From the IMG/VR virus record IMGVR_UViG_3300043411_001076: DNA of 64,000 nt. One strand, 5' to 3'. The notes beneath the pieces are model-generated. The model worked only from the letters and a program-made list of their open reading frames with translations. It was not told where the DNA came from and made no database searches. Shown here piece after piece: positions 403 to 46,100 of the stretch. A program made the translations under genes and the position numbers. The DNA is from a virus. Taxonomy: Duplodnaviria > Heunggongvirae > Uroviricota > Caudoviricetes. The stretch's first letter is position 1; each line of letters starts with the position of its first letter.

Positions 403-1665
403 ATGACCTCAGTAAAGACAGTTGAACTTGGTGTATTTTCGAAAGATGAAACTATCAAAGATGATAAGATTACTACTCGTAGTGGATGGGGTGACGGACT
501 AGTCACTTGTTACATGGATAAGTCAGAGACAAGAAAGGCTCTTATTACAGACTCTGAATATAAATTGGATTCAAATATCCACTTTGAATCAGAAAGTAAA
601 ACAGATTTCCTCCATAGAAATCTTTTTGATTACTTAGCCCTATGCTATTCTAATCATTATAATGCTATTTTAACTCCTGACATGGTTTGGTTTTCTATTA
701 TGTCTGAATTGGCTGGTGAAGTCAATAGACAACCAGAGACTTATCGAAAATATTTCACAGATTCTAAAGAAAAGAAAACACTTCTAGTTTCTGTAGATCC
801 ATCTCAACCTGGGTTTTTGAATTTTTCTGATTTTAAATCTGCTCTAAAAGAAGCAGTACCTGTAGACACTAATCTGTTCATGCCATCGTTTTCAACATCT
901 GATGCATTATCTAATATGGCTATTCAAGCCGTATTTATGGATGCGGTTTCTCCGTTTTATAACTATATGATGTTTATGTGTGGTATTCCAAAAATTGAAA
1001 TTCATGGGTCTACAGAAGATTGGAATACACTAAAAAATAGTTTTACTGGTATTGTAGAACTAATGAATAACTCTTTCCCTGCTTATGCTAAAAATTGGTC
1101 AGCAAACGTTTATAAAGTTATTGATCAGGTAATCAACACCCTAAATGAACATACACAAGAATTTGATTGGAAAACTATTTTCTATAGTAAAAGTTGTGGA
1201 TCTGGTTCTCAACAAAACGTTTATGGTTGGATCTTTAATCTAGTCATGAATCATGAAGGAAAAGGAAATTCAGAAGGTAAGATGCTCCATAACTACCCGA
1301 CACAAATTGCTAAAGTATCTTATACTATCGTAAATGATCCCAATAATTATACGTTTAAGATTGGACTAACGAAATCAAGTCTAAACGAAAATAATTTCCT
1401 TATCCCTGAATTTGGCTATGTTGTTAACAAAGAGGTTGAAGTTAAAGAACAACCTAGACAACAGAATACAAATAAAGAAGTAGTTATAAAATCTGAATTA
1501 ATTACAACATCCAGACAGAAACTAGATGTTACATGGGAACCGAGAACTGAGATTTTTATATTATCTGGTGATGACGATAAAAGTAAACATCTCGGTCTAA
1601 GGGTAGAAGAAAAGATAGGTGTAGCCTGGACAACTAAAAAATATACTTTTTTACCAGAAGATTAA
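403..1665 (+). CDS. hypothetical protein (420 aa)
   Basis: Long ORF, ATG preceded by AGAAGGGA; followed by GC hairpin terminator; no motif recognised. Confidence 0.6.
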   Translation: MTSVKTVELGVFSKDETIKDDKITTRSGWGDGLVTCYMDKSETRKALITDSEYKLDSNIHFESESKTDFLHRNLFDYLALCYSNHYNAILTPDMVWFSIMSELAGEVNRQPETYRKYFTDSKEKKTLLVSVDPSQPGFLNFSDFKSALKEAVPVDTNLFMPSFSTSDALSNMAIQAVFMDAVSPFYNYMMFMCGIPKIEIHGSTEDWNTLKNSFTGIVELMNNSFPAYAKNWSANVYKVIDQVINTLNEHTQEFDWKTIFYSKSCGSGSQQNVYGWIFNLVMNHEGKGNSEGKMLHNYPTQIAKVSYTIVNDPNNYTFKIGLTKSSLNENNFLIPEFGYVVNKEVEVKEQPRQQNTNKEVVIKSELITTSRQKLDVTWEPRTEIFILSGDDDKSKHLGLRVEEKIGVAWTTKKYTFLPED

Positions 1666-1680
1666 TAAAATTGGTTACTA

Positions 1681-1706
1681 GGGGCTTCGGCCCCTTTCAC
1701 ATTTTC
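1681..1706 (+). terminator. intrinsic terminator
   Basis: GGGGC-TTCG-GCCCC hairpin then TTTCACATTTT. Confidence 0.6.
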
Positions 1707-1722
1707 AAAAAAGGTAATAAAA

Positions 1723-3054
1723 ATGGCTAAGAGAATCAAACCAAAAAACAATAAGACAGTAGAGAAATCTTCTGTGACTCCTTTAACTAATAATCAGGAA
1801 ACAGAAAAACTAGAATCTACTTCAGAATTAAATGTATCTTCGGAAAATCAAAATCCTGAAGTACAACAAACTGATAATGTAGTTTCAGAACCTACAGTTG
1901 ATGGAGCTTTACTTGATGAACAACCAGTTGTTCCAGAACCTACAGAAACGTTGGTTATAGAAGTAAGTTCATTGCTTCTCAATAACGATGTGAAAGTTCA
2001 AGACTCAGTAAAGACTAAAGTAATTCTTCCTTTATCATCAGATGATAAGTTTGAATCATCTGTCACCGTTTCACAGTCAAAAAGTAAACATGTTAAGGGT
2101 CTTTTAGATCATTGGGTTGACGCAGAATCTAAAGGACTTATGTATCGTTCTTTATTAGGCATTGCTCTAGGTGATGCTTTCGGTATGTTATTTGGTGAAT
2201 TTCCAAAAGATCCAAGTATCATTAGAAACATTGGATCAAAGGTTATTCCTCCAGAGAAGAATGCTCCTTCTTACTTGTGGAGATGGAGTGATGACACAGT
2301 TGCAGCAACTGCTATTGTAAAAACATTAGAGGAATTTAACGGTATCGATCAAGAAGAACTGAGTGATAACTTAGTATCTGGATATAATGCCTATTCAGAT
2401 AGAGGTTTTGGTGGTGGATTCAAGAAATTAATGGTAGGAATTAATGCTGGAGGATCTTGGAAGAAACTATCAAAAGACTTATTTGATGGGATTGGATCTT
2501 TTGGAAATGGATCGGCTATGAGAGTTGCACCTGTAGGTGCTTTTTTACACGATACAAGTATCCAAGCTGTTATACAGGAGGCAACAGAATCAGCAGAAGT
2601 GTCACATGCCCATCCAGAAGGAATTGCAGGGGCTGTTGCAGTAGCATTAGCTTCCTATTTTCTAAGTCAAGAAAATAATGAACCTCGTTCATTATTAAAT
2701 AAAATTCTGGAACATATGCCAGAATCAGAGACTAAAAATCAAATTAAGAAAATAAGTCACGTTGATATTCAAGAGCATCCATCATCTGTTGCTGAACTTT
2801 ATGGAACAGGAATGGCTCCAAAAAGTACGAAAATCAGTACAACATGTCAACATACAGTTCCATTCTGTCTTTGGATGGTACAGAGAAGTCTACTTTTTAA
2901 TAAGTCTTTTTCTACGACCATGTGGGAAGTTGCAGAATGTCTTGGTGATATTGATACGACTTGTGCTATTGTCGGTGGCATCCTTGCCTGCAATAAAAAT
3001 ATTAAGCTTCCTCAAGAATGGATTTCTAAACTAGAACCTATTCCTGTATTTTGA
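1723..3054 (+). CDS. ADP-ribosylglycohydrolase (DraG/ARH) family protein with low-complexity N-terminal extension
   Basis: Motifs LLGIALGDAFG, WSDDTVAATA, GNGSAMRVAPVGAF typical of ARH family; N-terminal ~140 aa S/T/E/Q-rich. Confidence 0.7.
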   Translation: MAKRIKPKNNKTVEKSSVTPLTNNQETEKLESTSELNVSSENQNPEVQQTDNVVSEPTVDGALLDEQPVVPEPTETLVIEVSSLLLNNDVKVQDSVKTKVILPLSSDDKFESSVTVSQSKSKHVKGLLDHWVDAESKGLMYRSLLGIALGDAFGMLFGEFPKDPSIIRNIGSKVIPPEKNAPSYLWRWSDDTVAATAIVKTLEEFNGIDQEELSDNLVSGYNAYSDRGFGGGFKKLMVGINAGGSWKKLSKDLFDGIGSFGNGSAMRVAPVGAFLHDTSIQAVIQEATESAEVSHAHPEGIAGAVAVALASYFLSQENNEPRSLLNKILEHMPESETKNQIKKISHVDIQEHPSSVAELYGTGMAPKSTKISTTCQHTVPFCLWMVQRSLLFNKSFSTTMWEVAECLGDIDTTCAIVGGILACNKNIKLPQEWISKLEPIPVF

Positions 3055-3083
3055 TAGCCAGAGGTCAAAATTAATATTCAATA

Positions 3084-3113
3084 AAGGGATGGTTTTCATC
3101 CCTTTTATTTTTT
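3084..3113 (+). terminator. intrinsic terminator
   Basis: AAGGGATG-gttttc-CATCCCTT hairpin followed by TTTTATTTTTT. Confidence 0.65.
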
Positions 3114-3123
3114 GAGGGAAAGG

Positions 3124-3762
3124 ATGTTAAAACAAAATCAATTATTTTATATCAATACGTATATCACATACAAAAATAATAATTTTGATATTTTGCAAGT
3201 AAATAATTTATTGGAAGGATTAAGTACAATAGACTTAAAAGAAATACAACAGATAAAAGAAGATATCGATTATATATTTGACGGGATGCCTGTAGAAAAT
3301 AGTCTTACAGAGGGAAGAATAAATGCATTATACGCTGAATGTATGTCTGATTTCCAGTCATTTCAGTGGAAGTGTTGTTTATCAACAGCAAGGATGTTAG
3401 TTAGAACTGATTCTAAATACCGATCCATTTATCTGTTTATGATGGGGAGATGTTATCAGTCATTAAATGCAATAGACTTATCTGTTTTTGTTTATCAGAA
3501 AACTCCTATTTATAAACTATATTTATGGATTGGATCTCTATGGAGAGATCCGCACATGATGAGTATTGAATCTATAAATAATGAACCTGATTCTGTCTGT
3601 TTGGAATGGTGGAAAGACAAAAAGAAACTTACTGTTTACATAGATTCTGATAAAATATCTTATTTGCAAGTGTCGGGTCCGTCCATACTAAATGATATGG
3701 TAGACGGAATATTGACGGAAGAAAACGCAGAAGGAGTATTTCAATGGATTTTGAAAGGTTAG
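3124..3762 (+). CDS. hypothetical protein
   Basis: ORF track starts at TTG 3112 inside terminator T-run; first ATG 3124 preceded by GAGGGAAAGG. Confidence 0.5.
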   Translation: MLKQNQLFYINTYITYKNNNFDILQVNNLLEGLSTIDLKEIQQIKEDIDYIFDGMPVENSLTEGRINALYAECMSDFQSFQWKCCLSTARMLVRTDSKYRSIYLFMMGRCYQSLNAIDLSVFVYQKTPIYKLYLWIGSLWRDPHMMSIESINNEPDSVCLEWWKDKKKLTVYIDSDKISYLQVSGPSILNDMVDGILTEENAEGVFQWILKG

Positions 3763-5438
3763 AAAGAACTATTATAGATAATCCTTCTGATGTTTTATTA
3801 TGTGAGGCGGTCCTAACACAGATTAAAAGAAATAAAGCATTAAGTGACTCCATAGAAGATCATTTGATCTTATCTGATCAACCTGAATTATTAAGTATTA
3901 TAAATGGAGTTCTTAATAAGTCCTATAATAATATTGAGGATTTATATAAGATAATAAAGGCCCGTAAGATAGCCTGGGAAGAATCTTATTCATTTGGATT
4001 TTCTAAGATTAAAGCCGAAAATAAGTCCTTATCAATTCGATTTATTAATTATTTATTCGAAAATGTAAATGATGATTTAGTAGTAGGCATGTTTAATACT
4101 TACTGTGAGATACATGTTCCAATTTATATCACGGATAAGTTGTCAGATACTAAGTACGTATTACTACTAAAATATTTTATTAAAGATGTGGAAAAAATAC
4201 AAACGAAAGAAATTAATAAACTTCATGTAAAATCATTAGTAAATGTTAAAAAGGAAATAGCAAGTAGTATAGTTTTTATCATTAAAACCTTAATTGATGC
4301 CGTACAAACAGAGAAAATAATATCATTCAAACAGATTCATCCATTTCTCACAGAAGAGTTAGGTACGGATATTTTAATAGATGAGCGTATTTTTAATTCT
4401 CCATTATCAATAGTAGAAGATAAATATACGCATGATTATCCATGTGGATCTTTAAGAAAAAATTCAAAAGATGCAAATTATGAAATGCAGCAGATTTATC
4501 AAGATTTTTACACAAGAGAAGCAGGATACAGTAGGGCAACACTTCAATACGGAAATCCTGTAGTTCCTTCTTTCCATTTATTTAAATACAAGTCATCGAA
4601 GACCATCGGATCTTTGAAATTGAAAGATGGATCGTTACAATACGAGATTACCTATGAAGCATTTTATATAAAATCAGTCACAGTAGGAAATCACGATGTA
4701 TTCTATAACCAATGTTCTTCAAACTATCTTCTAGGAGATGCTATAGGACATGGACTTAGACTATATATCCGCAAAAGTAAAATAGATACTTCATTTCGAG
4801 ATTTTTTAATCGAAAATTCAGTATTCATGTATGCTTCAGAACTTATAAAGATATTAGGTATTAGTACCATACAAGCAAATGGTAATTTCTCATATAGACT
4901 GAACAACTACAACAAATTTATCATTTGTGCGGGAAAATATTTACGCGGAGAACATAATACAAAGAAAACAAATAGCCTTACTACTTTTAAAGTAAATATG
5001 TTTAATAATGCGACACTTAATAGTGATCGGGCCATTTTTTATACTTTGGCTACTAACAATGTATCGTCTATCTCTAGTGAGTTGTACAATATAATCACAA
5101 AAACTAATGGCAGAGAGACATTAGATAAGACATTTAATTTTTTATTTGGAAATGATGACTTATATAAAGAAGTGACTATACATCCAAAAACTGTTAGATC
5201 ATATTATTTTGGGAGTCGTACATACGAAATATCCGCGTATACCTACAATACACCCCTTATTTACGAAACCTCGATGGTTAAAATAAAGCAGTTATTATCA
5301 AAAATAAAAGAGGCTTTAGTTGTTAAAGGAGAAACTAACAGATTAAATGATCCACCTTCATGGATAGATTTTCTTGACTGGAGTACTGTAAGTATAGAAT
5401 ATGCAGACACAATAAGGGCGTTTTTAAGTTTGACATGA
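3744..5438 (+). CDS. hypothetical protein (564 aa), N-terminus MDFERL resembles MDxERL paralog family
   Basis: Long ORF; N-terminal MDFERLERTI similar to starts of genes at 15565-19704. Confidence 0.55.
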   Translation: MDFERLERTIIDNPSDVLLCEAVLTQIKRNKALSDSIEDHLILSDQPELLSIINGVLNKSYNNIEDLYKIIKARKIAWEESYSFGFSKIKAENKSLSIRFINYLFENVNDDLVVGMFNTYCEIHVPIYITDKLSDTKYVLLLKYFIKDVEKIQTKEINKLHVKSLVNVKKEIASSIVFIIKTLIDAVQTEKIISFKQIHPFLTEELGTDILIDERIFNSPLSIVEDKYTHDYPCGSLRKNSKDANYEMQQIYQDFYTREAGYSRATLQYGNPVVPSFHLFKYKSSKTIGSLKLKDGSLQYEITYEAFYIKSVTVGNHDVFYNQCSSNYLLGDAIGHGLRLYIRKSKIDTSFRDFLIENSVFMYASELIKILGISTIQANGNFSYRLNNYNKFIICAGKYLRGEHNTKKTNSLTTFKVNMFNNATLNSDRAIFYTLATNNVSSISSELYNIITKTNGRETLDKTFNFLFGNDDLYKEVTIHPKTVRSYYFGSRTYEISAYTYNTPLIYETSMVKIKQLLSKIKEALVVKGETNRLNDPPSWIDFLDWSTVSIEYADTIRAFLSLT

Positions 5439-5580
5439 TTTCTATGTTACGTTTTTGTAGGTTCTGCGATATAATAGGCATCAGAAAGGTAGTAGCTAAT
5501 AGCTACTGCGGCGACTTGGATCGTTTTAAGGTTCTATCTATATGTGTAGTTGAACCTTAAAGCATTTTTTGGGAAAGAAA

Positions 5581-7194
5581 ATGACTAGACTAGCAAACGT
5601 TGTAAATCTTGTATCCGAAACTCCTTCGATGAAGGCTGATACCGTAAATAAGGAAGGATACGCCGCTTTCAAAAAGCAATTTGAAGAACAGTATATTCAG
5701 ACATTGTTAACTAATACTTTTGGAAAGGCATTTTACGCTACGTCTAATGAATTGATTAAAGAGTCTATTAATCTACACAACGAGATGGTAGAGAAAGATC
5801 CTGCATTTATGGCAAATGCCCTTGTATATGCCAGAAACAAGGGATACATGCGTTCTCAACCTATCTATGGTCTTGCAACATTGGCACGAAAATCAGTAAC
5901 TGATGCCAAAGCAGGACTAAAAGATTCGGCTGCTAGAGATAACTTCAAAAGAGTTTTCTCTCTAGTCGTACTAACTCCAAAGGACTTGTTAGACTTTGTT
6001 ACAGTGACAAGGTCTATGAGAGGATGGGGAAGTCTTGTTAGAAAGCAAGTACAGAAATGGCTAAGTGATAAGATGAATACCTATTGGGCCATTAAATATG
6101 GTTCCATGAAATCTGGAACCTATTCTTTGAGAGATGTTTATCGTATTTCTCACCCAAAGGTTTTGGAAGGTGCAAGGAAAGGAATCGTAAACTACATTGT
6201 TCGCGGTGAATTAGGTATGGAACACCCTGATCTGGAGCAGATTAATTGCTTTGAACAGTTAAAAACTGCAACTGATGCAGATTCCAAAGTTGAATTAATT
6301 AGACGCGGGCGCTTACCTCACGAAGTTGCGACTACCTTTGCAGGTAAAGATAAGAAGGTATGGGAATCCATTGTCCCTCAAATGCCTATCTTTGCCTTAC
6401 TACGGAATTTAGCAACCATTGAAAGAAATGATGTTGTGAAGGAAAGTAAGAATAAGATTGAGAGCACCTTCTCAAATGAACAGCAAGTACGAAAAAGTAA
6501 GATTCTTCCGTTCCAATTTTTATCTGCGATGGATAAGGTAACTACTCCTTTCATTAAAGATGCTCTTAGGGATGGTCTTGAGTTGTCTTTCAGTAATCTC
6601 CCAGAAATCACTGGTAACACAGTCGTATTCTTAGATATCTCTGGATCTATGGACGAATTAGATACCTCTGGATCTATGACCAATGGAAGTAAGATAAAGA
6701 CAGCCTCTATTTTTGCTGTTGCTCTTATGAAGAAGATTGAAGAAGGAAAACTATATCTTTTTGATACGGCTATTGAAGAAAGGGTAATCTCAAAAAGAGA
6801 TAGTCTTATGACTCAGGCAGAAAGAATCAAAACCAGAGGTGGTACTGAGACATCTATTACTATCGATACTATTCTTAGGAAGAAAGAAAAATATGATAAT
6901 ATTATTATGCTCACAGATGAACAGCAAAATTCTGGGCGTCCATTCTGTGATCGTTTAGCTGCATATCAAAGAGTTTACCCAGACGTAAAAACGTTTATTA
7001 TAGATATTTCTCCATACACTCAATCAAGGTCTTTACCTATTGATATGAAGAATGTATATTATATCTTTGGATGGTCCCCTAAAGTTTTGGAATTCATTTC
7101 TATGACTACTAAAGGATGGTCAACTATGACAGAAATGATCCGTGATCCGAAAAATTATTCTCTGCTTTCTGATAAAACAGAAGATGATGAATAA
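5581..7194 (+). CDS. Ro60-like protein: TROVE domain + von Willebrand A (vWA) domain
   Basis: N-terminal NKEGYAAFK...TNTFGKAFYATS...ANALVYARNKGYMRSQPIYGLATLA (TROVE-like); C-terminal MIDAS motif VVFLDISGSMD; ORF-track start 5569 is TTG, ATG 5581 has GGGAAAG upstream. Confidence 0.65.
   Translation: MTRLANVVNLVSETPSMKADTVNKEGYAAFKKQFEEQYIQTLLTNTFGKAFYATSNELIKESINLHNEMVEKDPAFMANALVYARNKGYMRSQPIYGLATLARKSVTDAKAGLKDSAARDNFKRVFSLVVLTPKDLLDFVTVTRSMRGWGSLVRKQVQKWLSDKMNTYWAIKYGSMKSGTYSLRDVYRISHPKVLEGARKGIVNYIVRGELGMEHPDLEQINCFEQLKTATDADSKVELIRRGRLPHEVATTFAGKDKKVWESIVPQMPIFALLRNLATIERNDVVKESKNKIESTFSNEQQVRKSKILPFQFLSAMDKVTTPFIKDALRDGLELSFSNLPEITGNTVVFLDISGSMDELDTSGSMTNGSKIKTASIFAVALMKKIEEGKLYLFDTAIEERVISKRDSLMTQAERIKTRGGTETSITIDTILRKKEKYDNIIMLTDEQQNSGRPFCDRLAAYQRVYPDVKTFIIDISPYTQSRSLPIDMKNVYYIFGWSPKVLEFISMTTKGWSTMTEMIRDPKNYSLLSDKTEDDE
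6638..6680 (+). repeat. in-frame tandem duplication (CTCTGGATCTATG x2, 27 nt apart) within vWA MIDAS motif
   Basis: Encodes SGSMDELDTSGSMTNG; direct DNA repeat visible. Confidence 0.5.
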
Positions 7195-7225
7195 TTAACC
7201 GCAAAAAACTGAAAACAACTCGATA

Positions 7226-7264
7226 AAAGCTCTATTATTTTTATAATAGGGCTTTTATCTTTTT
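7226..7264 (+). terminator. intrinsic terminator
   Basis: AGCTCTATTAT-tttt-ATAATAGGGCT hairpin followed by TTTATCTTTTT. Confidence 0.6.
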
Positions 7265-7274
7265 AGAGGGTATT

Positions 7275-7910
7275 ATGAAACATATAGATGATATTAAGGC
7301 AAGATCAGGGGTAACGTTAGAGCAAGTAAAAGATGAATTAAAATTTCCAACTATTTATGATCCAGAAAAATTTATATCAAAGACTCCCTATCCTAATAGT
7401 CATCCTTCTTACTTGAAAAATATAAAAATAGTTAAACATATCTCTGAAAACTTAAAGCCAGTAGATCACGAAGAGATGATGGCTTATGATAGGTCATTTC
7501 GACATGAAATTAGTAATAAATTAGATAAATTAAAGATTCCATATCAATGGGTAGACGGATTATTCGAAGAATTAGAATATCTTATAGTACTTGAAAAGTA
7601 CAGGCATAACAAGCCAAGACCTTTTATTTTAGGACCACACATAGGAGTAGAAATAACACCGATACATTACAGATATGCACAATCACCTTCATATCCTTCG
7701 GGCCACGCCATGCAAGCATATTTGGTGTCAGAGGTTATAAAATTACTATTAAATATTGACGAACTGGACTCTGTAGCAGGTAGAGTCTGTTTAATTCGTA
7801 TGCAAGCGGGTGTACACTTTCCATGTGATCTTATAGAAGGGATGAAATTAGCTAAAAATCTGGCTAAATATCTAGTAGAGACATATGGAAAGAATATTTT
7901 TAATTTGTAA
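7275..7910 (+). CDS. PAP2-superfamily phosphatase (soluble, no signal peptide or TM)
   Basis: All three PAP2 signature motifs with correct spacing: K-x6-RP (KYRHNKPRP), PSGH (YPSGHA), R-x5-H-x3-D (RMQAGVHFPCD). Confidence 0.65.
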   Translation: MKHIDDIKARSGVTLEQVKDELKFPTIYDPEKFISKTPYPNSHPSYLKNIKIVKHISENLKPVDHEEMMAYDRSFRHEISNKLDKLKIPYQWVDGLFEELEYLIVLEKYRHNKPRPFILGPHIGVEITPIHYRYAQSPSYPSGHAMQAYLVSEVIKLLLNIDELDSVAGRVCLIRMQAGVHFPCDLIEGMKLAKNLAKYLVETYGKNIFNL

Positions 7911-7927: not shown

Positions 7928-8548
7928 ATGGACTGTTACAGTGATCCGCCTCTAATAGTAATGAGTACTATTGAATGTATTCAGCATCGACCTGGGATGT
8001 ATATAGATAAAACAGATGTCCTTCCAGAACATATCCCATACCAGATTTTATGGTATCTGTTAGATTGGGTGTCTTACTTAAATCCGACAACAGTATCTAT
8101 AGGAATTCATTCTTCTGGTGAGCTAGAGATAGTAGCCTCACCTATCAATCGTCAATATTTAAATCTTGAATCAGAATTAGAAAATGGTCATGGAGTTGAA
8201 GATAGGTATAGTTTATTTTCAAACTATAAATATATGATAGATCCTGTATCTAAAAAATTAGATATGGGGACTCTAGTTATTGTAAACGCCTTATCTGAAG
8301 AATTAGAATTAGATTATAACTGTGACAATAAAAATTTTAATTTTCGATACCAAAATGGTAATTTAGTAAGCAGATCTGAGGAAGATAGATCGGATAATCA
8401 TGTCAGAATTAGATTCAGACCTTCTTCAGAGATATTCAAAAAGCTTTGCGATATACCTTTCAATATATCGGACCTATCTTATATCTTAGGCTATGTAAGT
8501 AAATTAACATTACCCTTTAAAATTCATTTACTATCTACAAAGGAATAA
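7928..8548 (+). CDS. GyrB/ParE N-terminal (GHKL) -like fragment, catalytic residues not conserved
   Basis: IQHRPGMYIDKTD...ILWYLLDWVSYL aligns with type IIA topoisomerase RPGMYIG...LHHLVxEVVDNxxDE but N/E positions are W/Y; only 206 aa. Confidence 0.4.
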   Translation: MDCYSDPPLIVMSTIECIQHRPGMYIDKTDVLPEHIPYQILWYLLDWVSYLNPTTVSIGIHSSGELEIVASPINRQYLNLESELENGHGVEDRYSLFSNYKYMIDPVSKKLDMGTLVIVNALSEELELDYNCDNKNFNFRYQNGNLVSRSEEDRSDNHVRIRFRPSSEIFKKLCDIPFNISDLSYILGYVSKLTLPFKIHLLSTKE

Positions 8549-8549
8549 A

Positions 8550-8732
8550 ATGTTAGACTCAAAAAAGAACCCCGCATTAGTACTTGCCGTAAAAGAAGCA
8601 GAGAAAACATTCTTTATTCCTAAGTTTGTTGAAAATGATATAACGATTAATAATCCTGCAATTCTAAACGCTTTGAAAACAGTAAAATTTTATATGCCAA
8701 ATGTTCCCTATACGAAAAAGGAAGAAAAATGA
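8550..8732 (+). CDS. hypothetical small protein
   Basis: 60-aa ORF, SD AAAGGAATAAA upstream, stop overlaps next start. Confidence 0.4.
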   Translation: MLDSKKNPALVLAVKEAEKTFFIPKFVENDITINNPAILNALKTVKFYMPNVPYTKKEEK

Positions 8733-9088
8733 GCACGATTTTTGAAAAGATCATAGCAAGACAGATCCCTGCAAATATTGTCTATGAAGACGAAAACGTG
8801 TTAGCATTTGAGAGTAATGATCCTATTGCACCTGTTCATATAATTATTATTCCTAAGTTATCCACCGTTAGTAGAGACATCAATGACCTTTTTTATAAAT
8901 ATGTGCATGAGGAAGCCAAAACATATTTAGGACTTCTATTTGAAGTTGCCTATTCGTTAGCACTTTTGAAAGGAATAGCTAAGACAGGTTATCGTACTGT
9001 TATTAATAATGGACCAGATTCAGGACAGCAAGTTCCCTACATACATCTACATCTCATTGGTGGTAAACAATTAGGGAGCATCGGTTAA
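8729..9088 (+). CDS. HIT-family (HINT-like) nucleotide hydrolase
   Basis: Histidine triad YIHLHLIGG near C-terminus; N-terminal IFEKIIARQIPANIVYEDENVLAFESNDPIAPVHIIIIPK typical of HINT. Confidence 0.8.
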   Translation: MSTIFEKIIARQIPANIVYEDENVLAFESNDPIAPVHIIIIPKLSTVSRDINDLFYKYVHEEAKTYLGLLFEVAYSLALLKGIAKTGYRTVINNGPDSGQQVPYIHLHLIGGKQLGSIG

Positions 9089-9090
9089 AT

Positions 9091-9414
9091 ATGTCAAATG
9101 AAGGAAATTATAAGCAGGCTATTTTAGATGAAATAATGAATATAAGAAATAGACCTGAGATGTTTGCTAGGGATTTAAACGAAGCATGTCATATTTTGAT
9201 AACCCTATTCGATATTTTAAACAGAAATAGAGAGTTCGAAGAACTAGAGGTAAACGTATTTAAAATCTATCTTAATAAATTGGAAGTTACGTTTTCAAAT
9301 TCAAAAATAACTAATATAGAGCCACTTGTTCTTTTTTCAGATAAAAGAGCAGGGGAATTTATTAAAGACTTTGTAGATACTATCGTATCAGCATTGAGAT
9401 TAAACCATAATTGA
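9091..9414 (+). CDS. small GyrB N-terminal-like protein (degenerate)
   Basis: IRNRPEMFARDLNEACHILITLFDILNRN resembles topo IIA RPGMYIG..LHHLV.EivDN segment; 107 aa. Confidence 0.35.
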   Translation: MSNEGNYKQAILDEIMNIRNRPEMFARDLNEACHILITLFDILNRNREFEELEVNVFKIYLNKLEVTFSNSKITNIEPLVLFSDKRAGEFIKDFVDTIVSALRLNHN

Positions 9415-9425
9415 GTAGGGAAAAC

Positions 9426-9683
9426 ATGACTAAGAAAATTGATTTGGAAGATTTAGTTAGATTAAGAAATTCAGAAGTAAATGCAAATAAAGAAAGGATA
9501 AGAACAGGTGTTATTAAAGTATCTGAAGAAAATTACGTACCGAAGGAAGTCAAAGTAAGAGCTTGGATCTCACATTTTCTAGCAACAGTTGAATTAAAGG
9601 ATGATTTTGAAGGTGATTTTGAAGACTTAACAGATCCAAAAATTATATACATTGAACCCCATAGGAAATTAAATCTTTTATGA
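9426..9683 (+). CDS. hypothetical small protein
   Basis: ORF-track start 9411 is TTG; ATG 9426 preceded by GTAGGGAAAAC. Confidence 0.4.
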   Translation: MTKKIDLEDLVRLRNSEVNANKERIRTGVIKVSEENYVPKEVKVRAWISHFLATVELKDDFEGDFEDLTDPKIIYIEPHRKLNLL

Positions 9684-9886
9684 TGAGCTATATGATAGCC
9701 GTAAAGAAAGCAGAAGACTTAGAAAGTCTATGTTCTATTTTAAAAGAAAATAGTATATCTTATAGAAAATCTTTTGATACGTCAGTACGTGTCAATTACA
9801 GTAGTTCATTAGAATTAGGTATTTTACTATCCAAAACAAAAGTAGGATTTGAAATATTTCCTAGTTCAAAACTGGAATTCTTTTAA
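9680..9886 (+). CDS. hypothetical small protein
   Basis: ATGA overlap with upstream gene. Confidence 0.4.
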   Translation: MMSYMIAVKKAEDLESLCSILKENSISYRKSFDTSVRVNYSSSLELGILLSKTKVGFEIFPSSKLEFF

Positions 9887-37202: not shown

Positions 37203-37222
37203 TCAAAAAGTGTCTACGGTTA

Positions 37223-37277
37223 ATCCTACCAAAACATCCCCAAAACTCCTTCCTTATTATCCTACCAAAACACCCTT
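37223..37277. repeat. two direct repeats ATCCTACCAAAACA(T/C)CC, 36 bp apart, in a divergent intergenic region
   Basis: C-rich repeats in an otherwise AT-rich intergenic region between divergent gene starts. Confidence 0.5.
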
Positions 37278-37299
37278 CCTAATCACCACCCCGAATAAA

Positions 37300-37331
37300 C
37301 CCTATCATGTGAATGGTAGGGTTTATTTTTA
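37300..37331. terminator. hairpin + T-run (terminator-like) inside the divergent region
   Basis: CCCTATCAT-gtga-ATGGTAGGG (one G-U pair) then TTTATTTTTAT. Confidence 0.45.
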
Positions 37332-37347
37332 TCTAATTGGAAAGAGT

Positions 37348-37626
37348 ATGGTATCAAAAGAAAAGAAGTGTAAAGTATCAAAAGAAGTGAAGAATGTATT
37401 CGCTAACGATCCAAAGAAATTGACAGTAGATGTAAAGATCATACTGTCAGAAGCTTATGCAAAAGAAGGGACTAAATGGATAAGAGAAACTTTCTTCAGA
37501 GAAGGAATCTCTATAGAGTCAGAAGATAAAGAAAATTTCTTCTTGGTTGCAAAGATACAGAAAAAACATATTGATCGACTAGACTACTCTATTTTTGTTA
37601 CGTTCGTGGACTTGCACAAAACTTAA
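37348..37626 (+). CDS. hypothetical K/E-rich small protein (short form; ORF track gives 37117 with TM + PT-rich N-terminus)
   Basis: GGAAAGAG upstream of ATG 37348; the long form would overlap the divergent gene start and contain the terminator-like hairpin. Confidence 0.3.
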   Translation: MVSKEKKCKVSKEVKNVFANDPKKLTVDVKIILSEAYAKEGTKWIRETFFREGISIESEDKENFFLVAKIQKKHIDRLDYSIFVTFVDLHKT

Positions 37627-37629
37627 ATA

Positions 37630-37929
37630 TTATTTTAGTTTTGCGGATAATTCTTTTAACTCCTGTTCTTTTCTCTCTTGAATAATCCTTTTCTTTTTCT
37701 CGTCTTTCGATTCTTCTTTGACAACTTCTGTTACACAATACAGATTCTTCATTTCTCTTACTTCCTGAAGTAAATTTCTATTCATATCACATAAAATTAC
37801 TCTTGTCGATTCTAATATGTGATTTATTAATACTCCTTTAGAAAGTAAGATAGCTTTAATAGTTTCAAACTCTTCATTAGTAGATTCTGGAAAACCACGT
37901 ACTATAACGTATGCCATATTCGTAATCAT
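37630..37929 (-). CDS. hypothetical small protein
   Basis: 99-aa ORF, charged C-terminal coiled-coil. Confidence 0.45.
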   Translation of the reverse strand: MITNMAYVIVRGFPESTNEEFETIKAILLSKGVLINHILESTRVILCDMNRNLLQEVREMKNLYCVTEVVKEESKDEKKKRIIQERKEQELKELSAKLK

Positions 37930-38023
37930 TTTTATATCCTTAAAAAATAAAAAGAAGAAGTAGAGTCTTAAATCGAAAACCCCACTTCTTCTTAATAGGT
38001 TATTCTACCCAGATTGTCAAAAT

Positions 38024-42235: not shown

Positions 42236-42258
42236 TACACATTATAATAAGATAAAAG

Positions 42259-42290
42259 AAAAGCCCCAATTAAGGGGCTTTTCTTTTATC
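42259..42290. terminator. bidirectional intrinsic terminator
   Basis: AAAGCCCC-aattaa-GGGGCTTT then TTCTTTTATC; between convergent genes. Confidence 0.65.
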
Positions 42291-42297
42291 TACTCAT

Positions 42298-42723
42298 TTA
42301 TATATTTCTAAGTAACTCACACCTATGTATCTCATCATTAAATAGATTAACTAGTTTAGTCATTAATTTATCTACTAATTCTGGAAGATAGTACAGAAGG
42401 CTGCTAATAATTTGTTCGTCAGTAGTTTGTTTTTCGTCAAATGGCAATTGAAATAATCTATGTGCATGATATACTTTATCTGCATGTTCTTCTAAATTCT
42501 CAAAACATATAAATTCCGTTTTCTCTTGGTCTATAAAAAATTCGAAATGAAAATAACGTGGATCTAAACGAGTAACAATCCCCCCAAACCAACCGGGATT
42601 GTTCGGAAAGTGGGCATAGTTTTCATGGTACTGACAATACCGAATGTTTCGATCAAATACACAGCCTTGTTTTTCAAATAGATCTTGAAATTTATCTAAC
42701 AGGATATTTAGTCTATCTTCCAT
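42298..42723 (-). CDS. hypothetical protein
   Basis: 141-aa ORF. Confidence 0.45.
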   Translation of the reverse strand: MEDRLNILLDKFQDLFEKQGCVFDRNIRYCQYHENYAHFPNNPGWFGGIVTRLDPRYFHFEFFIDQEKTEFICFENLEEHADKVYHAHRLFQLPFDEKQTTDEQIISSLLYYLPELVDKLMTKLVNLFNDEIHRCELLRNI

Positions 42724-43172: not shown

Positions 43173-46100
43173 TTATTCCTCTAGTTTTTCTTTTTCTTCG
43201 TTATCAACTGGAAGAACGTCTTCCAATTCCGTATTTTCTTTCTGCTGTAAATTATTAAGATCTATAATACAAGACTCATCAATAAACATTGAGGGTCCAG
43301 AATCTTTATTCATATGGTCTTTTCTAGACCATACAGCCAATACAGTTTCCTCACCTCTTGTAATAGCTACATAGGCAAGTCTTCGTTCCTCTCTTATTTT
43401 ATTATTGTACTTGTAGACATTTTCTGATTTAGGATGGTCATAGATAGGTTTCTTATTATTCTTAGGACCAACTAAAAATAATCTACGGCCATCTGGAAAT
43501 GTAGTACTATTCATAACTATAAATACGTGTTTGGCTTCTAATCCTTTCCACATGTGAACAGTATAAATCGGAACTGCATCTTCTTCACCAGCCTTAATTT
43601 TATTCTTATTCGATTCAGCTATTTTCTTTAATTTAAAGAAATAGTCAACAACTGTCTTAATATCATTTATACCGTACTCTTCGGTTTCCCCCTTCTTTTG
43701 AGAAGCCGATAATATCTGCTTTAATGATAGAACGACAGGTAGATCATATTTTTTTACAACTGGAGCATTTGTGTCTGTTGATACTTCTAATGACTCTTCA
43801 GAGTCGTCTGTAACGGTATCATCTTGGACATCCTCATTTACATCATTTTTTACTTCTTTATCTAAATCTTTTAAAGCATCTCTCAATGTCTTTCTATTTG
43901 GATTACCGTCTTTATAATCTAGCATGTAGTCTAGTAAAGAATCAAATGAAATATCTGCTTCTGCCGCTTTTGCCCTAATATCTAAACACATCTTTGCATG
44001 GGATAATAAACTAGACTCCATAGACTTCTTAGAATAAACTGGCATAGATTGACTTAAAACAAGCCGTAAAATACCCTGCTCATTTAATAGTCTATCAAAC
44101 CTAGAATTTGTGTTTGTAAGTTGTATAATTTTCTTCTTTAAAGTGTCAGCAGATAAACCTGTTTCTGGAAAAGAAAGAGTGGCATAGAACATATCTGCTA
44201 ATTTATCCCGATCATCTACGACTGCTAAACTCAACCAATTTATTAGTCTAGTGAGTACAGGATCAGACATCATCGATTTTGATTTTATATAAGGAATTTG
44301 ATATTTTAAAGCAGCTAATTCAAAACCATGAGATTCATCATTTACCCTAATAACAATACCAAAATCTTTCCACTTTAAGTCTTGTCTTTCGTCTTTTAGT
44401 ACTCTTACTTCTTTCATTACATATTCACATAACTCGGAATAGCTATCAAATCCCCTAGAAGCAACCAATCCTGAACCCTTATGAGGAGTAGCCTGACATG
44501 CCATAGGAATTTGATAAGACGAGTTATGACTTATCAATGTATTAGCTGCATCTACTATCTGTTCTCCAGATCTATAATTTGTGGATAGTAAAATAGTTTT
44601 AAAATTTCCACTTTGTAAATCTGATCTGTGAATAAATTCTTCTGGGTCTGCTGATCTAAAAGAGTAGATAGAATTATGACTTAGTACATTATTTCCAAAG
44701 AAATTAGATGCGTCATTCACATCTAAGTCTATGAAAGAATCTTCTACTTTCTCCACAGATACTATTTTATCTTCATAGACATTTCCAAAATCATCTATAC
44801 ATATAACTCCCATTCCGACCTGCACGGTCATACTCATCATTAATTCAAAAAATTTCCCATTAAACCCTATTTTTTCTACGATATGCTGTCCATATGAAGT
44901 TGCAAATGTAAGGGCCTCTCTGTAATTATCAAAATTATGCATACCATTTAAATATTTGACAACAGTTCCTCTATCTGTATGTGCCAAAATATTTACATAA
45001 TTCTTATAAGACCTGTTACTGGAATCACTTGACACCCAAATCCTATGATTTGGTGACATAATTAATAGATTACCTGTATCTGTCGTTATCTTATATCCCC
45101 AAGTCCAAGATGTCTCACAAACATGAGATACAACTTGCTCAACTACTTCAGCATTTCTATAAGAAAGTATCTTATCTCCTATGTTTACCTCTGATAATAA
45201 CTTGTAACCATCTTTAGTAGAAATACAGGTAGTTGCGCTAAGACACTGTTTGTCATCCCCAATTATAGAATAAACTTCAGCAGTTAAACCTCTTGCAGGG
45301 CGAGATTTATCTTTGATTTCCCAAGTTGCATCAGTTGCAGGGTTTCTGATTCCTGCAATATATTCAAAGAATCTGTGTTGAGCAGCATTAAGATCCTGTC
45401 CCTCATCAATAAGAACAACTTTAAATCTGGATTGTAATTGGGACCGGGCATTTGAATTATGCTGCATTAAATCACCAAATGCCCATAATGTATCTGTCCT
45501 ATCAAGAGGAAATTCATTACCTAATACTTTCTGAATACTAGGCTCATTTCTCTTTAACCATTCATAAGCACCCCATACCGCTAACATACAGGGTGATTCT
45601 GGTGGTATATGAGAATTATCTTTTTCCTCTCCTGTCTCTGAATAAGTATTGTAAAAGTCCTTATACTTATCCCATAACTCTTCTGGATTTCTGAACTTGC
45701 CGCTTAATCTAGCAACAGCGGAAGCTGCATCCTTTATAGTCAATTTATAAGGATATCCGATATTAAACCACTGATTAGCAGGTTTGTATAAGTAGGGACT
45801 CTTCTTTGCTTCTTGAGCTACTAGATTTCTTTTAGACTCTTGTTCTGTGGAGTCTTGAAATGACGCTAATTTTGAAATTTCAGATCCTGTCTGAATCCCT
45901 GTTATATCCTTAAAATAAGATTTCCCACTGTTTGATTTAGAAAAATTGAAATCAGTGAGTCCAATAAATAACTCTATTCTTTCTATGTCTCTTTCAGAAA
46001 TTTGGGATTTAATATTAGGAGAGATACTTGTTATATCATTAGAGTAATTATTAGTGATCGTATTTCTTAATAATTTTAGGGTTGCATTAGATAAATTTAA

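Follow-up and report, generated by a model that had tools for sequence, protein, structure and literature searches.

A structurally conserved hairpin, and no recognisable Y RNA, upstream of the Ro60 gene in a phage clade

Ro60 proteins are thought to work through Y RNAs. Y RNA genes normally lie on the flanks of the Ro60 genes (Chen et al., 2014; PMC4201824); in the YrlA RNAs the Ro60-binding motif is GNCGAA (PMC4201824). The phage versions of Ro60 are only beginning to be studied (phiLo, 2025). In this work we analyzed a Ro60 gene and the spacer upstream of it (positions 5439–5580) in a stretch of 64,000 nucleotides (nt) from a virus of the Caudoviricetes (IMG/VR record IMGVR_UViG_3300043411_001076); the whole stretch is called the window below. 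An earlier reading of this DNA, made without database searches (the sequence-only reading), had proposed that the spacer is a Y-RNA-like non-coding RNA (ncRNA), and our result is mostly a correction of this label. The phage clade has an apparently functional Ro60 and no recognisable Y RNA within 64 kb, whereas the sampled relatives have one to four immediately upstream of the gene. What the spacer does contain is a hairpin, HP2, which by comparison of the available sequences is real and conserved in structure across the clade. By analogy with known elements we lean, if only slightly, towards viewing the spacer as a non-coding leader that belongs to the phage Ro60 gene, and HP2 as a cis-acting element for processing or stabilising the mRNA.

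Structure of the spacer and conservation of HP2

The gene upstream of the spacer ends at 5438, leaving a spacer of 142 nt. The sequence-only reading had described it as structured and 130 nt long; the length has to be corrected, while the structure is confirmed by a minimum free energy of −38.8 kcal/mol for the whole spacer (z −3.2), with 1 of 200 shuffled sequences as stable. The region is otherwise tightly packed, as was also stated there: in a hand-picked set of window open reading frames (ORFs) the median gap is about 9 nt, and the spacer is among the five largest gaps. It comprises the following parts:

5439–5487, plus strand: 5' part with the semi-conserved bipartite motif ATGT(T/G)ACG-N15-CGATA, seen in alignment, and TATAAT at 5470–5475
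5489–5509, plus strand: HP1, a 9-bp hairpin with an AAU triloop, a near-perfect palindrome (free energy, dG, −10.8; z −3.5)
5510–5522, plus strand: linker GGCGACUUGGAUC, read from the sequence
5523–5563, plus strand: HP2, an irregular hairpin of 41 nt with 16 pairs, the conserved element (dG −15.5; z −6.0)
5565–5570, plus strand: U6 run directly after HP2, found in the window and in locus L089 only
5571–5580, plus strand: purine-rich ribosome-binding region GGGAAAGAAA, conserved in all relatives

Both hairpins of the sequence-only reading were found. In HP1 (GTAGTAGCT-AAT-AGCTACT) the stem extends to 9 pairs. HP2 (TTAAGGTTC...GAACCTTAA) had been given a 9-bp stem and an 18-nt loop; its lower stem has in fact 12 pairs (5523–5534 with 5552–5563) and its loop 17 nt, within which lies an inner stem of 3–4 bp. 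The stability of HP2 was matched by none of 200 shuffles.

In total, five loci of the same clade were recovered (L089, L001, L002, L088 and L087), with four distinct sequence variants. L089 has 97% nucleotide identity to the window. L001 and L002, in which Ro60 is 77% identical, share with the window the gene order ADP-ribosylglycohydrolase, two unknown genes, spacer, Ro60 and PAP2. L088 is a mosaic relative of L001, and L087 is a third lineage with about 70% nucleotide identity and 199 nt of upstream sequence only. An INPHARED nucleotide search with window positions 3700–7300 gave no match, and two scans of viral_contigs revealed no relative; a metagenome scan for close relatives, made with overly generic patterns, gave one distant locus among the matches listed.

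Two side observations concern these loci. L002 contains, a few genes past Ro60, a class II aminoacyl-tRNA synthetase-like gene (8309–9868; tRNA-synt_2b and HGTP_anticodon), which is missing at the matching place in L001. In L088, positions 1580–3130 form a block about 22% diverged from L001 in otherwise near-identical phages. This block takes in the gene before Ro60 together with HP2 and the initial 130 nt of Ro60; two stretches within it are nearly unchanged (about 3%), namely the spacer's 5' 95 nt and the final 80 nt of the upstream gene. From the sequences, either mosaic recombination or a sequence-constrained element could account for it.

The spacers are largely unalignable between lineages, the exceptions being ATGTKACG-N15-CGATA, UCGUUU before HP2 and the ribosome-binding region, which in the relatives reads GGGAAAGAAG, GGAAAAGAAG and AGGAAAGAAA. 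Counterparts of HP2 were revealed by folding:

window 5523–5563, plus strand: HP2
L001 4943–4982, plus strand: HP2 counterpart
L088 2943–2982, plus strand: HP2 counterpart
L087 140–181, plus strand: HP2 counterpart

All four variants are 40–42 nt long, contain 16 pairs including two G.U and end 17–18 nt before the AUG. Their dG values range from −14.9 to −17.7 kcal/mol (z −4.9 to −6.0), and 0 of 200 shuffles were as stable.

Between L001 and L088, 13 of 34 stem positions differ, against 1 of 30 flanking positions in a 64-nt alignment. The differences include five double compensatory pairs and two G.U-compatible changes, and the loop UAGGUU is identical; 94% of cells are paired, compared with 32–59% when the partner is slid by 1–3 columns. 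Among the 11 lower-stem pairs shared by the window and L001, three double compensatory changes, one compatible change and no disruptive change were counted in a hand alignment, with the sequences read by eye and no tool count. MAFFT alignments of the spacers broke the hairpin registers, and therefore anchored and model-based alignment was used. Covariation in related phages, which the sequence-only reading had named as a check of its hairpins, is found for HP2. In L089 the U.G pair of HP1 is replaced by C-G, giving a perfect palindrome with dG −12.8; elsewhere the HP1 site holds weak unrelated hairpins only (dG −4.8 in L001; 6 bp in L087). Judged from these sequences, the conservation of HP1 outside the lineage of the window and L089 is poor.

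A covariance model of HP2 (R2) was built from L001, L002 and L088 only, with the window left out. Its best match in the 64 kb on both strands was window 5520–5583 (28.4 bits, E about 2e-4; next match 16.4), a score due in part to the conserved flanks. The model also finds L087 136–202 at 18.2 bits. No second copy of HP2 was detected by R2 in the window, and hence HP2 is not a repeated element. In all four variants the plus-strand fold is 3–7 kcal/mol more stable than the minus-strand fold, which suggests that an RNA of the Ro60 strand, and not a DNA element, is involved.

The 5' part of the spacer (5439–5487) is a possible candidate promoter for the Ro60 gene; ATGTKACG and CGATA occur at the identical 15-nt spacing in the L001/L002 alignment. 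Sigma-70 consensus scans flagged no promoter in the spacer, their hit counts were at chance level and none of the hits was conserved. In the linker, GGCGAC (5510–5515) differs at one position from the YrlA motif GNCGAA. It is not located within a 5'/3' stem, L001 has UUCGUC at that place, and as a candidate Ro60-binding motif it is a weak lead. Two further candidates were rejected: a 41-aa ORF (5435–5560), which shrinks to 7 codons in L001 and does not make HP2 a coding sequence, and a 5' hairpin at 5439–5487 with a weak closing stem (CAGAAA/UUUUUG), whose pairing is not kept in L001. The motif RGGTTCT occurs twice in the spacer, but its 14 window copies against 15.8 expected are not significant window-wide. 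It should be mentioned that another motif, (A)TGTAGG, recurs in several intergenic regions, 5–20 nt past the stop codon and mostly right ahead of a terminator hairpin (window 5456, 10288, 14549 and 22244, plus strand; L001 about 6613). The window contains 31 copies against about 20 expected, and this motif may be a phage-specific transcription or processing signal.

Y RNAs of the relatives and their absence from the spacer

For comparison we used a set of 82 loci with Ro60 at 40–50% identity; 80 Bacillota loci were taken, chiefly from Paenibacillaceae, Brevibacillus, Cohnella and Syntrophomonadaceae, plus 3 phage-like or unassigned metagenomic loci. Essentially all 82 loci contain one to four tandem Y modules on the same strand within about 500 nt upstream of Ro60 (L006:2522–2981; L004:415–736; about 1000–1450 in L007–L086). 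The general statement of the sequence-only reading, that Ro60 genes typically adjoin Y RNA genes, thus agrees both with the literature (PMC4201824) and with these loci.

The modules have a common organization: 5'-stem a ending in GAGG, CG, 5–7 nt, GGGUUACUUCG, an apical part that varies, CCUUUCC, a short gap of a few nt, UUUU and CCUC-stem a'-3'. The short signature of this Bacillota-type Y RNA is GAGGCG-N5-7-GGGUUACUUCG ... UUUUCCUC, its 3' side being CCUUUCC-N-UUUUCCUC-stem, and 190 copies of the 5' half were found in the 82 loci. A second stem, which was not used to delimit the modules, is 98% paired, and five of its seven pairs change on both sides. Three length classes can be distinguished (about 100, 115 and 135 nt). 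The apical part is often tRNA-like, with only some of the modules having this character. The last module ends 16–25 nt before the AUG (19 nt in L006, 23 nt in L004).

In the positive control, the Rfam YrlA model matched one L006 module at 31.7 bits (E 0.004), against a gathering threshold of 69, and it gave 0 matches at gathering in 20 loci. Because these scores are far below the gathering threshold, the Bacillota-type subfamily is under-detected by the current Rfam YrlA model. A by-product of this work is thus a sharp signature for Y RNAs that fall far below the YrlA threshold.

We built a second covariance model (R1) from 60 modules and ran it with filters off. R1 recovers held-out modules (two in L004 and L006 2867–2981) at 32–54 bits, with E values of 1e-8 to 8e-6. 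Its matches in the window spacer reach at most 3 bits and are generic hairpins through local ends only; in the L001 spacer they reach at most 3.9 bits, the top match being on the minus strand. Nothing was found by R1 upstream of Ro60 in L087–L089, and nothing credible in the five close relatives. The 5' half of the signature, with up to four substitutions allowed, occurs 0 times in the window, L001 and L002. The best R1 match in the window (42245–42337, minus strand; 14.2 bits, E 0.32) coincides with an ORF end and a bidirectional terminator, lacks GAGG/CCUC and was rejected as chance.

The public models gave a similar picture. There was no match to Rfam at the gathering thresholds anywhere in the window, and Y_RNA and YrlA gave none at E<=10 in 5300–7500 and none at E<=5 in the whole window. 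ARAGORN found no tRNA-like gene in the window, L001 or L002; the tRNA-like module (T-arm GGUUCGAAUCC and D-arm) was not detected, nor was a sub-threshold Rfam tRNA match in the window. A stem joining the 5' and 3' ends and carrying the Ro60-binding motif GNCGAAN0-1G was not found, the predicted folds being independent local hairpins. The spacer does lie within about 4 kb of Ro60 on the same strand, as is required of YrlA, which is a criterion of position only. Two further readings concern a disguised Y RNA. A circularly permuted form, with HP1 as the closed basal stem, has no supporting pairing and was rejected as over-fitting. The likeness of the 5' strand of HP2 (GGUUCUAUC, GAUACUC, UUACUUC) to GGGUUACUUCG was noticed post hoc, involves shifted registers and is invisible to R1; it is a weak lead only.

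A sub-threshold Rfam match of another kind was found at 43325–43421 on the minus strand (n00280; 45.7 bits, E 2.4e-4, gathering 65.2). The family is described as 'Clostridioides difficile sRNA included into helicase gene', and the match is located inside an ORF for a 1650-aa helicase. It probably reflects homology of the helicase genes and may be a hint of a clostridial host.

Every defining feature of Y RNAs that can be tested on the sequence is absent from the spacer, and among the sampled relatives with Y RNAs the phage clade is an exception. The proposal that the spacer is a Y-RNA-like ncRNA is not supported by the Rfam search, the tRNA-like module, the end stem or the R1 score. The sequence-only reading had tied its refutation to two findings together, no model match and no conservation of the hairpins; the match is absent and HP2 is conserved, so that in these terms it is half refuted. 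Taken as a whole, its Y-RNA interpretation is partly supported, the spacer being no member of a known Y RNA family.

The Ro60 protein and the possible roles of HP2

The window comes from a large phage genome rich in A+T (33% G+C) and encodes a DNA polymerase, helicases and a ribonucleotide reductase. Downstream of the spacer are located:

5581–7194, plus strand: Ro60 homologue with a TROVE ring and a vWA domain carrying the MIDAS motif (adhesion site dependent on metal ions) DISGSM, recognized by Pfam, PHROG and structure alignments
7222–7264, plus strand: intrinsic terminator at the end of Ro60, consisting of a 17-bp hairpin and a U5 run after it, found by the terminator scan

By all comparisons the ORF encodes a Ro60 homologue, and the assignment of the sequence-only reading (TROVE plus vWA) holds. 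The protein of 537 aa matches Pfam TROVE (PF05731, E 1.6e-21), vWA_Ro60 (PF25045, 28.6 bits against a cut-off of 27.7) and PHROG 850, 'RNA-binding protein' (1.3e-49). Solved Ro60 structures align over its full length, namely those from phiLo (9KOP/9L5Y, 1.2e-18, residues 11–509) and Rsr of D. radiodurans (2NVO, 1.3e-17), as well as 1YVP (1.7e-14); Xenopus and human Ro60 also align. Among the 488 homologues that a protein search gave, many bear the name 60 kDa SS-A/Ro or TROVE. The nearest are three proteins with 100, 77 and 74% identity, followed by hundreds with 40–50%, mostly from Bacillota. The sequence comparison also sets the start codon at ATG 5581, and not at TTG 5569 or at Met17, which was picked by one gene caller, because GGGAAAGAA(A/G)ATGACTAGA and the N-terminus MTRLA are kept in relatives and Met17 is replaced there by Leu.

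The window Ro60 retains 119 of the 126 columns that are at least 85% conserved among 117 relatives, and the protein is therefore under purifying selection. LDISGSM, with the MIDAS DxSxS motif, is invariant in the alignment of Ro60 homologues, and basic residues retained by the window protein align with the RNA-contact residues of phiLo Ro60. By these signs the phage protein looks functional and probably still binds structured RNA. Three of seven clade-specific replacements are clustered at residues 149–154 (nt 6025–6042), where all three phage-clade proteins have WG(S/N)xxR in place of GGRxxK. In the 117 relatives, which have canonical Y RNAs, GGRxxK is 88–97% conserved. The segment aligns with the phiLo Ro60 helix that bears the RNA contacts R137, K141 and K142.

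As a side observation, the vWA MIDAS motif of the window protein contains a 27-nt tandem duplication (AGATATCTCTGGATCTATG / AGATACCTCTGGATCTATG) at 6633–6678. It yields DISGSMDELDTSGSM, so that the motif is partly doubled; the 9-aa insert is not present in the relatives with 77 and 74% identity.

What, then, may be the role of HP2? HP2 is on the coding strand and combines a conserved structure, compensatory changes and a fixed place relative to the ribosome-binding site. A hairpin that is conserved in structure, free in sequence, strand-specific and adjacent to a purine-rich site fits a cis-acting leader better than a separate ncRNA gene. Both 5' stem-loops and purine-rich ribosome-binding sequences are known mRNA stabilisers, a precedent being phage SP82 of B. 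subtilis, with an RNase III site and a polypurine 5' stabiliser (Hue et al., 1995, cited in PMC7509114). We infer that HP2 is transcribed within the Ro60 mRNA, and suggest by analogy that it serves in processing or stabilisation. In this scheme HP2, about 40 nt with 16 bp on the Ro60 strand, would be the functional core of the leader. It might be a processing site for a double-strand-specific nuclease of the RNase III type, separating the Ro60 message from the upstream genes; or, as a 5'-proximal stem-loop, it might together with the purine-rich site protect the message from 5'-end-dependent decay. In the window phage the added U6 run would probably make HP2 a leaky terminator of the upstream two-gene unit as well. 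Ro60 itself would presumably use an RNA partner encoded elsewhere, either outside the sampled phage sequence or in the host.

Several points weigh against this interpretation. The continuity of the transcript from HP2 into Ro60 is itself inferred, promoter predictions in the spacer do not rise above chance, and the RNase III or stabiliser activity is proposed by analogy. The covariation comes from four distinct sequences only, and the shuffle control for L001/L088 gave 21/500. The divergence between L001 and L088 falls in the mosaic block, where the neighbouring coding sequence is also about 22% diverged. In addition, HP2 occupies the slot of the basal stem of the relatives' proximal Y RNA (16–25 nt before the AUG), and therefore a Ro60-related role is still conceivable.

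Such a role is the core of the first alternative, which we consider rather unlikely: the phage Ro60 would bind the spacer, or HP2 alone, as a Y-like RNA that is minimal and highly diverged, a reduced descendant of the relatives' proximal Y RNA. It could be a separate small RNA, extending from a promoter near 5448–5475 to HP2 with the U6 run as terminator, or a Ro60-binding site in the leader of its own mRNA, leading to autoregulation. Position and strand agree with the Y RNA rule (PMC4201824) and with the place of the relatives' last module; an RNA of about 90 nt would be marked out by TATAAT at 5470, the two hairpins and the U6 run; and GGCGAC is close to GNCGAA. The retained conserved columns and basic residues suggest that Ro60 probably still binds structured RNA, while the change of GGRxxK to WG(S/N)xxR on the RNA-contact helix could reflect a changed RNA partner. 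Moreover, in phiLo a single stem-bulge-stem hairpin, Yrl2, serves as a Y-like RNA (PMC12135203). Opposed to this are the absence of an Rfam Y_RNA/YrlA match at E<=10, the R1 scores of at most 3 bits (3.9 in L001) against 32–54 for held-out modules, and the absence of the 5' signature half even with four substitutions. Neither a 5'/3' end stem nor a motif-bearing internal loop, T-arm or D-arm is present, the U-run and TATAAT are not conserved in L001, L088 and L087, and the HP2 stems have no protein-readable sequence signature common to the lineages.

The second alternative, which we find unlikely, takes HP2 with the U6 run as an intrinsic terminator or attenuator of the upstream two-gene unit (3112–5438), HP1 and the rest of the spacer being incidental. 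In the window a 12-bp stem is indeed followed by AUUUUUU, the junction at 7222–7264 is built in the same way (a long hairpin rich in A+U, then a U-run and the Shine-Dalgarno sequence of the next gene), and AGGUUC (5459–5464) could pair with GAACCU (5552–5557) as an alternative structure. However, L001, L002, L088 and L087 keep the hairpin and have A-rich sequence (AAAGAAAAGGG, UAGAAAAAAGG) after it, so termination is hardly the conserved function. HP2 is not flagged in the terminator scan, and the recognisable terminators of these phages have G+C-rich stems followed by U-runs.

There are different sources from which Ro60 could obtain its RNA. It is equally possible that the phage uses host Y RNAs, its nearest cellular relatives being the Ro60 proteins of Bacillota, or that it encodes a Y RNA beyond the 64 kb seen here, a related phage contig being 133 kb long against the 64-kb window. 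As a third option besides borrowed host Y RNAs and a Y RNA encoded elsewhere, the proximal Y RNA may have been reduced to a bare leader hairpin. In that form, which strikes us as distinctly doubtful, HP2 would be a 'mini-Y' of about 40 nt in the Ro60 leader, bound by the altered phage Ro60 for autoregulation or loading in cis. If true, Ro60 and RNA would be partners here in a way that has not yet been described.

Finally, that the inverted repeats act as DNA (operator palindromes for a dimeric regulator, a cruciform or a replication signal) is highly improbable: HP1 is a near-perfect 21-bp palindrome, perfect in L089, but it is not conserved beyond the window lineage, and in HP2 the G.U pairs become A.C mismatches in DNA or on the other strand, the plus-strand RNA is the more stable one and there is no conservation of the stem sequence, whereas a protein-binding site would show the reverse.

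Apart from the Ro60 locus, the window contains one region of 821 nt (37203–38023) without an ORF of at least 100 aa. Its start has repeats of CCTACCAAAACA-like motifs and it includes several hairpins; a regulatory region, an origin or small genes could lie there.

Comparison with known systems

HP2 shares several features with YrlA-type (Rfam RF02553; Chen et al., 2014) and Bacillota-type Y RNAs. It is located directly upstream of Ro60 on the same strand, it ends about 17–18 nt before the AUG, in the slot of the relatives' last Y module, and it is a stable helix with a bulge or mismatch. Unlike Y RNAs, it has no basal stem formed by the 5' and 3' ends of the RNA, it lacks GAGG/CCUC, GNCGAA and GGGUUACUUCG as well as a tRNA-like T- or D-arm, and with 40 nt, against 85–140 nt for the Y modules of the relatives, it has no score with Rfam or the clade model.

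The RNAs Yrl1 and Yrl2 of the Thermus phage phiLo (PMC12135203) are phage RNAs located upstream of a phage Ro60 gene, as is the spacer studied here. Yrl2, a Ro60 ligand, is a single stem-bulge-stem hairpin, and HP2 is likewise a single hairpin. In the phiLo Yrl RNAs a CGAA motif in a large internal bulge is required for binding (PMC12135203), whereas HP2 lacks both the bulge and the motif, and the CGA(C) closest to it is outside the hairpin.

With intrinsic terminators HP2 has in common the U6 run that follows it in the window. It differs from them in its A+U-rich stem, in its irregular 17-nt apical region with a short inner stem, and in the U-run itself, which three of the four sequence variants with the hairpin lack (L001/L002, L088 and L087).

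Hairpins that stabilise or process mRNA in 5' untranslated regions include the 5' stem-loop of ompA and the intergenic RNase III sites of T7. Like these and the SP82 element, HP2 is an irregular intergenic or leader stem-loop of 16 bp followed by a purine-rich ribosome-binding sequence, and its structure is conserved while its sequence is free, a likeness drawn from sequence alone. The most fitting place for the element is among the structured mRNA leaders, as a new example that is ordinary-looking though well conserved.

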